11,704 bases of DNA, from positions 1-11,704 of the forward strand of contig JAHQXC010000040.1 of assembly GCA_029856525.1 (NCBI GenBank), written 5' to 3'. The position numbers were made by a program, and so were the translations under genes. Under the pieces are notes generated by a model. That model ran no database searches, had not been told where the DNA came from, and was given only the letters and a program-made list of their open reading frames with translations. Position 1 is the first letter of the stretch; every line of letters starts with the position of its first letter. This document shows positions 8,292 through 10,975 of this stretch, piece by piece. The DNA is from Candidatus Odinarchaeia archaeon (GTDB taxonomy: Archaea > Asgardarchaeota > Odinarchaeia > Odinarchaeales > Odinarchaeaceae).

Positions 8292-8391
8292 GCGGGGGTA
8301 GCCAAGCGGACTACGGCGCAAGCCTTGAGCTGTTTAAAGACAGCTTGTGATCCATTGGATCGCGCGGGTTCGAATCCCGCCCCCCGCGCCA
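8292..8391 (+). tRNA. tRNA-Ser(TGA) with a 12-nt intron at 37/38 (8330-8341) and encoded CCA
   Basis: Acceptor GCGGGGG/CCCCCGC; D-stem GCC/GGC; anticodon stem CAAGC/GCTTG with loop CT-TGA-G|A after removing CTGTTTAAAGAC; long variable arm GATCC-ATT-GGATC; T-arm GCGGG-TTCGAAT-CCCGC; discriminator G plus CCA. Confidence 0.9.
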
Positions 8392-8476: not shown

Positions 8477-9166
8477 ATGAAGATAAATAAAGAGGGTCTT
8501 AAAATAAAGCCGGTTATCAGTGAAAAAAATATTTTAAAATTAAAACAACTTCTTATAAAACTTTCAAAAAATATTCGACTCCAAGATGAAATCCCTACAC
8601 CGTTAAAAAACATTATGGGAGTTGATGTCGCATATAAAGAGGAGAGAGCGTTAACGGTAGGTGTATTATTCAGCTGGCCTGAATTAAAGCATCAGAACAC
8701 TTTTTACAGAGTTGATAACGTTCACTTCCCTTATATTCCAACGCTCCTATCCTTCAGGGAGGGGACGCTTATCATTAGATTTCTAAAAAATCTTCCTTTA
8801 AAACCTGATCTATTAATGGTTAACGCTCACGGTATAGCTCACCCGTTTCAATGCGGCTGCGCATCATATATAGGGTTATTAACAGATACACCGAGCATCG
8901 GCGTAGCTAAAAAGATAATATGCGGTGAACTAACAAAATGTGAAGAGGGAAAAAATATTGCATATTTAAGATTTAATAATAAAATTATAGGCGCTGTTTT
9001 AAATCCTGGTAAAAGATCAAAAGAAATAGTAGTATCCGCTGGCCACCGGGTCTCCCTAGAAACCGCGATAGAAATAACTTTAAACACTCTTAGAGGTTAC
9101 CGGCTTCCAATAATATTAGAGGACGCTCATAGAAAGGCAACCGAGCTATCAGCTGAAAAGCTCTAA
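8477..9166 (+). CDS. nfi: Endonuclease V (deoxyinosine 3'-endonuclease) homolog
   Basis: MGVDVAY, FPYIPTLLSFRE (PYIP wedge plus catalytic Glu), HGIAHP, SIGVAK, VSAGHRVSL, C-terminal DAH. The second catalytic Asp reads Asn (VNAHG). Confidence 0.92.
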   Translation: MKINKEGLKIKPVISEKNILKLKQLLIKLSKNIRLQDEIPTPLKNIMGVDVAYKEERALTVGVLFSWPELKHQNTFYRVDNVHFPYIPTLLSFREGTLIIRFLKNLPLKPDLLMVNAHGIAHPFQCGCASYIGLLTDTPSIGVAKKIICGELTKCEEGKNIAYLRFNNKIIGAVLNPGKRSKEIVVSAGHRVSLETAIEITLNTLRGYRLPIILEDAHRKATELSAEKL

Positions 9167-9249
9167 ATGACATCCTATTCTATTGAAATAGGTTAAACTC
9201 CACCTAGCATTTAACTACAAAAATTTTTAGCTGGGAAGATAATTATTAA

Positions 9250-9257
9250 TTTTAAAA
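9250..9257 (+). promoter_or_regulatory. Putative TATA box for the C/D sRNA
   Basis: TTTTAAAA about 26-33 nt upstream of the sRNA 5' stem at 9283. Confidence 0.35.
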
Positions 9258-9282
9258 TACTAATCCTCTTATTATTTAAACT

Positions 9283-9366
9283 CGGGCGTTCACTATCGGT
9301 GAGGAATCTGACCCCTATGAGCTGGGCGATGATTACGATCTTGAGTTCTGAGGTAATGAACGCCCG
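9283..9366 (+). ncRNA. Box C/D methylation-guide sRNA
   Basis: Perfect 10-bp terminal stem CGGGCGTTCA/TGAACGCCCG, a 1x1 mismatch, then a 4-bp stem TATC/GGTA. Box C GTGAGGA (9299-9305), D' ATGA (9317-9320), C' GCGATGA (9326-9332), D CTGA (9348-9351). K-turn geometry is canonical: 3-nt bulge GGU followed by tandem G-A pairs. Confidence 0.8.
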
Positions 9367-9465
9367 TCGCATTCTATAATATTTAACTTAAAATTTTTAC
9401 TTACAGTTAAGTCTCTCCCTTTTTATTAACTAATAATTTTATTCTTAATCCATGAGGGGTCTTAT

Positions 9466-10662
9466 TTGGAAGTTGACATGCTCGAAGGCAGATTTCAAAG
9501 AGCCAGCTTGTTTAAAGATGAAAGCAAGCTTTCAGTTTTCTACGTGCCGGAGAGCTTACCCCACCGGGAGAATGAATTACGCCAGCTTTTAAACACATTT
9601 AAGCCTATTATAGATTCCCCTGGAATAATCAATCGAATTGTTTTAATCACCGGTCCTGTTGGAACTGGGAAAACCGCGGTAGCTAAAAAAGCAGGGATGC
9701 TATTATGCGATGCTGCTAAACGGAGAGGAGTGAACTTAAACTACGTGCATATAAACTGTAGAAGAGAGAAAACCAATTTTCTAATATTATTACAATTAGC
9801 CCGTTCTATTATTCCAAGTATACCTAACAGAGGTTATTCCCCAGCCGAGTTATTAAATATAATAGTAGAATCGATAAAAGATAAAGACGCCTCAATAATT
9901 CTAGTATTAGATGAAATAGACTATGTAATAAACACATCCGGTGAAGAGTTAATATATGATTTAACGCGCGTTAACGATGAAAAATTAAACGGTAAACAGC
10001 CGTTATCGATAATACTCATCTCTAAAAATGATAATTTTCAAGCAATGCTAGATGAAAGCATTCTTAGCCTGATACCGCCTTTAAATATTAAATTCCACCC
10101 TTATACAGCTCTCCAGCTTGAGAGTATACTTGAAGCGCGAGTTAAAGAAGCGTTCTACCCATCCACTATAAGCCCCGGGGTTATAAGTCTTATCGCAGAT
10201 ATAGCTTCAGAGTGGGGGGATGCCAGGTACGCTCTTGAACTTCTTTGGAGAGCTGGAAAATATGCTGAAGAAGAGGGGGTTTTCAAGATTTTCCCAGAGC
10301 ATGTTAGGAAGGCTAGAGCGGACACCTGCCCGGAGATTAGTAAAGAGTTTATATTAAGTCTTGATAGAAACGATAAGCTAATACTTTTAGCTATAACTAG
10401 AAGCTTGACTAGAAGCGGCGCGGCTTACGCTCCGATCGGGTTAATCGAAAGAGTATACCGCCTCATATGCGAGGAATACTCTGAGAGGCCTAGATCACAT
10501 ACACAAATATGGGAGAGAGTGAGAGTTCTAAGCAGAATAGGCTTGATAACTACAAGGATCACCGGTAAAGGAGCGCGCGGTAAAAGTACAATTATAGGAT
10601 TGGAGGAGATACCGGCGGAAGTTTTAGAAAAAGAATTAACAGGATGGTTGAAAAATGAATAG
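9466..10662 (+). CDS. cdc6: Orc1/Cdc6 family replication initiator
   Basis: YVPESLPHRE, Walker A GPVGTGKT, YVHINC, Walker B LVLDEID, FHPYTALQL, sensor II GDARYAL, C-terminal winged helix. TTG start has GAGGGG upstream; ATG at 9478 is an alternative. Confidence 0.96.
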   Translation: MEVDMLEGRFQRASLFKDESKLSVFYVPESLPHRENELRQLLNTFKPIIDSPGIINRIVLITGPVGTGKTAVAKKAGMLLCDAAKRRGVNLNYVHINCRREKTNFLILLQLARSIIPSIPNRGYSPAELLNIIVESIKDKDASIILVLDEIDYVINTSGEELIYDLTRVNDEKLNGKQPLSIILISKNDNFQAMLDESILSLIPPLNIKFHPYTALQLESILEARVKEAFYPSTISPGVISLIADIASEWGDARYALELLWRAGKYAEEEGVFKIFPEHVRKARADTCPEISKEFILSLDRNDKLILLAITRSLTRSGAAYAPIGLIERVYRLICEEYSERPRSHTQIWERVRVLSRIGLITTRITGKGARGKSTIIGLEEIPAEVLEKELTGWLKNE

Positions 10663-10975
10663 GACGACCGCTAGAAGTGAATGTGAAAGCGAAAAATATT
10701 TCCAGTCAACAATCCAGATAGAGGATTTATTCGCTTCTAAAGGACGGGTTAAAATACTAAAAATTTTAGTAGAAGAAGGGGAGCTTAACATCTCTGAAAT
10801 AGGTAGAAGAGCCCGCCTCAATTACGGTACAACAGTTCAACACCTTGAATTCTTATGTAAAACAGGGATAATACAGGAAAAAAACTTTGGGAGGATAAGA
10901 ATATACCGGTTGAAAGAAGAAGATATCAGAGCTAGAGCTCTTAGAAGTTTTTTCTCTCTCTGGTATAATCAATAA
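10655..10975 (+). CDS. Small ArsR-like winged-helix DNA-binding protein
   Basis: DLFASKGRVKILKILVEEGELNISEIGRRARLNYGTTVQHLEFLCKTGIIQEKNFGRIRIYRL is a typical wHTH. It overlaps the cdc6 stop by 8 nt (ATGAATAG). Confidence 0.85.
   Translation: MNRTTARSECESEKYFQSTIQIEDLFASKGRVKILKILVEEGELNISEIGRRARLNYGTTVQHLEFLCKTGIIQEKNFGRIRIYRLKEEDIRARALRSFFSLWYNQ

Follow-up and report, generated by a model that had tools for sequence, protein, structure and literature searches.

The window examined here, a stretch of 11,704 nucleotides, is contig C62 of a 1.32-Mb metagenome-assembled genome (38.5% G+C, 93% complete) from an Odin-type Asgard archaeon. The Asgard phylum is the one closest to eukaryotes. Between the genes for endonuclease V and Orc1/Cdc6 lies an element with the layout of a box C/D sRNA, as follows.

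8477–9166: endonuclease V gene, the upstream neighbour of the element
9250–9259, plus strand: TATA-like A/T-rich box TTTTAAAATA, about 24–33 nt 5′ of the start of the stem, read from the sequence
9283–9366, plus strand: box C/D element, 84 nt
9283–9297, plus strand: 5′ strand of the terminal stem, pairing with 9352–9366
9299–9305, plus strand: box C, GTGAGGA, a variant of RUGAUGA whose TGA core is invariant in 13 aligned homologues
9306–9316, plus strand: D′ guide ATCTGACCCCT, 11 nt, complementary at 11 of 11 positions to an intron of the organism’s own pre-tRNA-Met(CAU)
9317–9320, plus strand: D′ box, ATGA, followed by an 8-nt loop
9329–9335, plus strand: C′ box, ATGATTA, 12 nt upstream of box D, placed by the alignment of 13 homologues
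9336–9347, plus strand: D guide CGATCTTGAGTT, of the canonical 12 nt, antisense to tRNA-Leu(CAA) from the anticodon loop into the 3′ stem
9348–9351, plus strand: box D, CTGA, with G9343 as the fifth base upstream
9352–9366, plus strand: 3′ strand of the terminal stem, pairing with 9283–9297
9466–10662: orc1/cdc6 gene, the downstream neighbour of the element

The A/T-rich box at 9250–9259 is possibly the sRNA’s own promoter. On its downstream side, the sRNA directly precedes orc1/cdc6 and an overlapping gene for an ArsR-type winged-HTH protein (9466–10975 for the pair), and the same order is kept in the congener G001.

The terminal stem consists of ten perfect, G+C-rich base pairs (9283–9292 with 9357–9366), a C·A mismatch (9293/9356), and four further pairs, one of them G·U (9294–9297 with 9352–9355). 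This agrees with the original prediction of a stem of about 14 bp. The minimum-free-energy fold retains the ten-pair stem and is more stable than the folds of shuffled sequences (z = −2.97). The GA dinucleotides for the sheared pairs are present in both box C and box D. Box C (GUGAGGA) and the D′ box (AUGA), as they stand in the window’s genus, are off consensus. The original prediction also had its coordinates right, and G9343 is indeed the fifth base upstream of box D. In contrast, it set the C′ box as GCGATGA and gave the D guide 15 nt (9333–9347); the alignment of 13 homologues moves the C′ box to the ATGATTA at 9329–9335, and it follows that the D guide has the canonical 12 nt. Thus, the sRNA and its Leu(CAA) guide stand, the C′ box was misplaced, and the D′ half, which concerns us most below, was left undescribed.

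The element is shared, at 85–88% identity, by the other three members of the genus (G001–G003). Weaker hits elsewhere in the phylum proved to be homologues with canonical boxes, and a sequence-only model built from 13 homologues has a match in 127 of the 151 sampled genomes of the phylum, a single one per genome with few exceptions. Box C reads ATGAGGA in the three congeners and ATGATGA in other families. The D′ box of relatives is CTGA, CCGA, CGGA, or CAGA, the terminal GA being constant, and their C′ box is ATGATGA or ATGACGA. The core of the D guide, TCTTGAGT, is invariant in the 13 aligned homologues and in the further ones that were read. The closing stems of other families, present in most, differ in sequence and in length (4–9 bp) and are longest in the window’s genus; within the genus, G001 has A:T in place of G9288:C9361, a compensatory change. 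The original prediction had staked its case on boxes and stem being kept in relatives, and both are conserved, the stem with compensatory changes.

The element therefore has what is expected of an archaeal C/D sRNA: box C, box D, and a closing stem, with the canonical ATGATGA in relatives, and internal C′ and D′ boxes with guides of about 12 nt, the spacers being 11 nt (D′) and 12 nt (D). Such an sRNA is also expected to form at least nine contiguous pairs between a guide and a stable RNA, with a Watson–Crick pair at N+5. The D guide pairs in this way with the tRNA-Leu(CAA) of the congeners, and the D′ guide does so with the host’s own pre-tRNA-Met intron at 11 of 11 positions. The host genome also encodes the core proteins fibrillarin (319 bits) and Nop5 (222 bits), in adjacent genes on contig C94. 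In Rfam, there is no curated family for the element, and the sole match, to sR55, has E = 2.8 and scores 12.4 bits where the threshold is 35. By every sequence criterion tested, the element at 9283–9366 is a genuine box C/D sRNA, as the original prediction had it, and the boxes, the stem, and the homologues across the phylum all support this assignment. That it is instead a terminator hairpin between endonuclease V and orc1/cdc6, or part of an antisense reading frame, is extremely improbable: a 10-bp GC-rich stem in an AT-rich spacer and a 53-codon antisense ORF listed at 9211–9372 would suit such readings, but conservation tracks the boxes and guides rather than codons, the stem varies in sequence while the boxes stay, and homologues extend across the phylum.

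A half-copy of the sRNA was seen in one genome. At G040:C1:1739845–1739900, about 200 nt from the G040 sRNA and on the opposite strand, there is a C box, the same D′ guide ATCTGACCCC, a CTGA, and a C′ box GTGATGA, with no D box behind the second spacer. A duplicate in decay is the probable explanation.

For the D guide, the original prediction was that the host’s tRNA-Leu(CAA) would have an anticodon arm reading about (G/A)A-CUCAAGA-UCGU, with its C34 opposite G9343. The arm in the three congeners reads AAGGA-CUCAAGA-UCCUU. With this arm, the D guide forms a G30·U pair and ten Watson–Crick pairs (A31 to C40), and C34 lies opposite G9343, the N+5 position. Anticodon arms of tRNA-Leu(CAA) were read in 12 genomes of six families, and in the nine genomes that belong to the five other families there are 9–11 Watson–Crick pairs and up to two G·U pairs with the genome’s own sRNA. 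In G037, a twelfth pair joins a guide G to C41 of the tRNA. A second sRNA copy in G011 has a G opposite U39, where a G·U pair still forms. In the complete genome G002, the pattern RRCTCAAGATC matches only tRNA-Leu(CAA) and the antisense strand of the sRNA gene. The predicted pairing is thus borne out by sequence and comparison in the congeners and beyond. As a first step, we propose that the D guide would pair with positions 30–40 of tRNA-Leu(CAA), placing C34 at N+5, so that the wobble cytidine would be 2′-O-methylated (Cm34), as the N+5 rule predicts. It counts against this step that in P. furiosus the Cm34 of tRNA-Leu(CAA), also predicted, was not detected in the tRNAs analysed (PMC7668247).

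The Leu pairing is read from congeners since the assembly does not contain the host’s own tRNA-Leu(CAA): neither ARAGORN, nor the Rfam tRNA model, nor pattern and T-arm scans of the assembly found it. The flank of the tRNA-Leu(CAA) gene of G002 matches the very end of the host contig C69, which ends at 2927, about 120 nt short of the position of the gene in G002. The gene is therefore missing because its locus falls in an assembly gap beyond the end of C69. The orthologous locus is spanned by one 18.9-kb contig of the source metagenome. The leucine tRNAs found in the host genome are those with anticodons CAG, GAG, UAA, and UAG. Overall, about 33 of an expected 46 or so tRNA genes are recognisable, many of them with several introns, and the multi-intron tRNA loci of this genome may be frequent contig break points.

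Other tRNA genes of the host carry introns as well. The window itself contains a tRNA-Ser(UGA) gene at 8292–8388 on the plus strand (46.5 bits with the Rfam model), with a 12-nt intron after position 37; it was missed by ARAGORN with default settings and found when introns were allowed. The tRNA-Trp gene (C71:2730–2898) has a 75-nt intron. On contig C61, at about 1400–1445 of the plus strand, the sequence AATGAGA ATCTGGAGTT CTGA looks like the C′-guide-D segment of a second C/D sRNA, with C34 of tRNA-Trp(CCA) as its target.

Other targets were considered for the two guides and set aside. Apart from its own antisense strand, the D guide has no good complement anywhere in the host assembly, the rRNA operon (contig C11) included. 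Among the host’s 16S and 23S sites, the best match is 9 of 11 for the D′ guide and 11 of 12, with G·U pairing, for the D guide, with no long contiguous stretch, and an rRNA target was rejected. An arrangement with both guides on one tRNA-Leu(CAA), the D′ guide directing Gm26, was likewise rejected, since the D-stem and position-26 region reads GGGGAAGGA, not GGGGTCAGA.

The target of the D′ guide is found within a tRNA precursor. The complementary segment lies at C13:15406–15416, in an elongator-type tRNA-Met(CAU) gene, within the intron that begins right behind the anticodon. In the host assembly, the 9-mer GGGGTCAGA occurs at two sites only, one antisense to the sRNA and the other at C13:15407 in this intron; the intron motif is also designated GGGGUCAGA. 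The tRNA-Met gene (C13, about 15310–15490, plus strand) has a G1:C72 pair and an anticodon arm CCGGA-CUCAUAA-UCCGG, and it was missed by both ARAGORN and the Rfam tRNA model. By our reading, four introns interrupt it: one at about position 30/31, one behind the anticodon, and one each in the variable region and the T loop.

Comparison among genomes gives the intron motif its weight. In the orthologous Met introns of G001–G003, the motif is kept and the neighbouring intron bases differ. Families f13, f19, and f7 have the motif too, in introns whose remainder is unalignable. Moreover, guide and motif change together, giving the guide/intron pairs TCTGACCCC/GGGGTCAGA, ATGACCCC/GGGGTCAT, TCTAGCCC/GGGCTAGA, and TCTAACCC/GGGTTAGA. 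The guide ATGACCCC accompanies the intron motif GGGGTCAT in 17 of 31 genomes of family f6, and TCTAGCCCTT accompanies AAGGGCTAGA in 13 of 21 genomes of family f4. Within f4, the genome G144 has the guide TCTAACCC together with the intron motif GGGTTAGA, a change from G:C to A:T for which G132 provides the G·U intermediate. Between families, a guide C-to-A change goes with a G-to-T change in the target, and guide GA to AG goes with target TC to CT.

A contiguous D′ guide–intron duplex of 8–14 bp forms in all 30 of the genomes tabulated, which represent six families. Of 19 genomes whose sRNA contains TCTGACCCC, 14 have the intron motif, and the other 132 genomes together yield three tRNA-like hits; reversed-pattern controls give about 0.05 hits per genome. 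The sampled genomes are related, so these counts are not independent, and it is the compensatory double changes that carry the evidence. In distant genomes, the exact 10-mer GGGGTCAGAG was not found in any tRNA; the last base of the motif is unpaired there, and a search with the 9-mer did find the motif in tRNAs. In family f2, AGGGTCAG does not follow CTCATAA in three genomes that are 78–91% complete, and in family f7, four of five genomes are without the exact motif in tRNA-Met.

The pairing of the D′ guide with the pre-tRNA-Met intron is, we conclude, established at the level that comparative analysis can reach. As the second step of the proposed mechanism, then, the D′ guide base-pairs with elongator-type pre-tRNA-Met(CAU) at the short motif of the intron located after the anticodon. 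It might be objected that the D′ guide is an orphan and that its match to the intron is a coincidence, or a relic of shared ancestry that has no function. About 80% of the tRNA-targeting sRNAs of Pyrobaculum have one guide without a predicted target (PMC6009581), and a 9-mer turns up by chance a few times per genome. Against this, guide and motif covary at several positions with Watson–Crick pairing kept, in 30 genomes of six families whose introns are otherwise unalignable, and the reversed patterns give only about 0.05 hits per genome. Given the covariation, the objection is close to refuted, and we hold it to be very improbable.

It remains to ask what the D′ guide–intron pairing is for. 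The best explanation overall, and one we consider likely, is a trans-acting dual-guide box C/D sRNA in which the D guide would be directed to tRNA-Leu(CAA) and the D′ guide to the Met intron. The sRNA would assemble with L7Ae, Nop5, and fibrillarin. In the third step, the intron motif would act as the docking site, and the D guide, near-cognate to the tRNA-Met anticodon arm, would methylate C34 of pre-tRNA-Met before splicing. This docking-assisted Cm34 of pre-tRNA-Met is the reading that we favour for the third step, tentatively and with a confidence somewhat short of even.

Several observations bear on the docking step. The gap between the anticodon arm and the intron motif is 6–13 nt, and more in f6, where there is a local hairpin. 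The order of the sites is collinear with the D guide, the C′/D′ motif, and the D′ guide, and it follows that one pre-tRNA-Met could bind both guides. With tRNA-Met, the D guide makes 8 of 10 pairs with ACUCAUAAUC, again with C34 at N+5. Positions 30–31 and 39–40 of tRNA-Met stay GA and UC, whereas other stem positions vary. A dedicated, sR49-like guide for C34 of tRNA-Met was found neither in the host genome nor in six near-complete genomes; the pattern hits for such a guide in the host genome have no box context, and the single hit in the six genomes reads like coding sequence and has no box context either.

The D′ target GGGGTCAGA also appears in another tRNA. It is in the D-loop intron of tRNA-Leu(UAA) in all five f7 genomes and in two f19 genomes (G040:C1:1510107–1510141 and G031:C356:272–306), 14–16 nt 5′ of the anticodon arm, this tRNA being, besides tRNA-Met, the one that is near-cognate to the D guide. 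In three f6 genomes, the sequence GGGGTCA is seen in the 5′ leader of tRNA-Leu(UAA). Taken together, the collinearity, the motif’s closeness to the anticodon arm, the near-cognate D pairing, the lack of a separate Met guide in the genomes searched, and the tRNA-Leu(UAA) motif suggest docking over methylation of the intron.

The alternative is that the duplex is real and has nothing to do with C34: the D′ guide would methylate a G of the intron, or act as a chaperone or timer of bulge–helix–bulge splicing, and the D guide would serve tRNA-Leu(CAA) only. The N+5 base of the D′ duplex is an intron G, always in a Watson–Crick C:G pair, and the GA of the D′ box is kept in all relatives. This same intron G, for which there is no obvious use, counts against the explanation that we prefer overall. 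In family f13, the motif directly adjoins AUGAG, one strand of the predicted splicing helix (the other being CUCAU), so that guide binding would compete with that fold, and chaperone roles of C/D sRNAs have been discussed for rRNA (PMC6009581). However, the N+5 base is shifted by two positions in f4 relative to f1; the two bases are non-homologous because the spacer lengths differ, which sits uneasily with selection for a single methylated nucleotide. This alternative also leaves unexplained why the motif is restricted to tRNAs with anticodon loops like the D target, namely Met(CAU) and Leu(UAA), and why it is so near the anticodon arm. On balance we think it rather unlikely.

Docking has difficulties of its own. 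Between the D guide and tRNA-Met there are two mismatches side by side in the centre of the duplex, at U36 and A37, perhaps too many for catalysis. Pairing of the D guide with tRNA-Leu(UAA) would put a G·U pair at N+5, a position at which a Watson–Crick pair is reported to be essential (PMC6009581).

Guiding of Cm34 in tRNA-Leu(CAA) has already been predicted in Pyrococcus and is routine by itself. What is new here, on the comparative evidence, is a second guide devoted to a motif inside an intron and co-evolving with that motif across six families. Neither the C/D reviews examined nor a 2026 preprint about tRNA introns in Asgard archaea mentions an intron-directed second guide; Joardar 2011 and Clouet-d’Orval 2001 lie outside this comparison. 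Large surveys have dealt with mature RNAs only; they report that most tRNA-directed sRNAs have one orphan guide and that no conserved C/D targets other than rRNA and tRNA are known in Archaea (PMC6009581). The same preprint treats the persistence of Asgard tRNA introns as an open question and leaves guide RNAs unmentioned (10.64898/2026.10.13.758758). The pairing described here gives a candidate function to at least one of the many Asgard tRNA introns, and it suggests that orphan guides elsewhere are worth scanning against precursors. It is tempting to go further and propose that an Asgard tRNA intron persists as a docking site, the D′ guide clamping the intron so that the D guide can also methylate, before splicing, the wobble position of pre-tRNAs near-cognate to it: that of Met and, in some families, that of Leu(UAA). 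This is an idea that we would sooner doubt than rely on, although it deserves to be stated: if true, the C/D RNP would have an intron-encoded extension of its specificity, and there would be a selective reason for retaining the intron.

Among known systems, the closest counterpart of the D guide is the Pyrococcus C/D sRNA predicted for Cm34 of tRNA-Leu(CAA) (Clouet-d’Orval et al. 2001 and the Lowe lab snoRNAdb, cited in PMC7994747 and PMC7668247). The papers examined make no mention of an intron-directed second guide for it. Both are trans-acting C/D sRNAs with a guide that is complementary to the anticodon loop and puts C34 at N+5. They differ in that the present host is an Asgard archaeon rather than a member of the Thermococcales, and the comparison is one of published descriptions.

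The need for an intron recalls the sR49 or sR-tMet family of Euryarchaeota, reportedly described by Joardar et al. 2011. Like the members of that family, the Asgard sRNA would be a trans-acting C/D sRNA that needs the elongator pre-tRNA-Met intron and acts before splicing. For elongator tRNA-Met of Haloferax and Pyrococcus, the sRNA that guides Cm34 takes part of its pairing from the intron and so works before splicing (PMC2584109, Additional file 5). A single D guide in that family, (G/A)CCCUAUGAG.., forms an uninterrupted duplex with the exon sequence CACUCAUA and three intron bases, and the D′ guides are unconserved. In the Asgard sRNA, by contrast, the cognate of the D guide is tRNA-Leu(CAA), and it is the D′ guide that addresses an intron-internal motif, 6–26 nt further on. 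The Asgard element thus falls outside the family, whose D guide (G/A)CC(C/G)UAUGAG.. pairs with CACUCAUA and the intron ggg; the guide here is CGAUCUUGAGUU.

The C/D guide encoded in the intron of pre-tRNA-Trp (Cm34 and Um39) is similar in having both guides on one intron-containing anticodon arm. In pre-tRNA-Trp, however, the intron is itself the guide, whereas the Asgard sRNA is encoded by a gene of its own and finds its target in the intron. Lastly, the position-34 guides sR26, sR27, sR45, and sR46 of Pyrobaculum were scanned against mature tRNA and rRNA, which left their second guides orphan (PMC6009581); for the second guide of the Asgard sRNA, the target is a conserved motif of a pre-tRNA intron that covaries with it.
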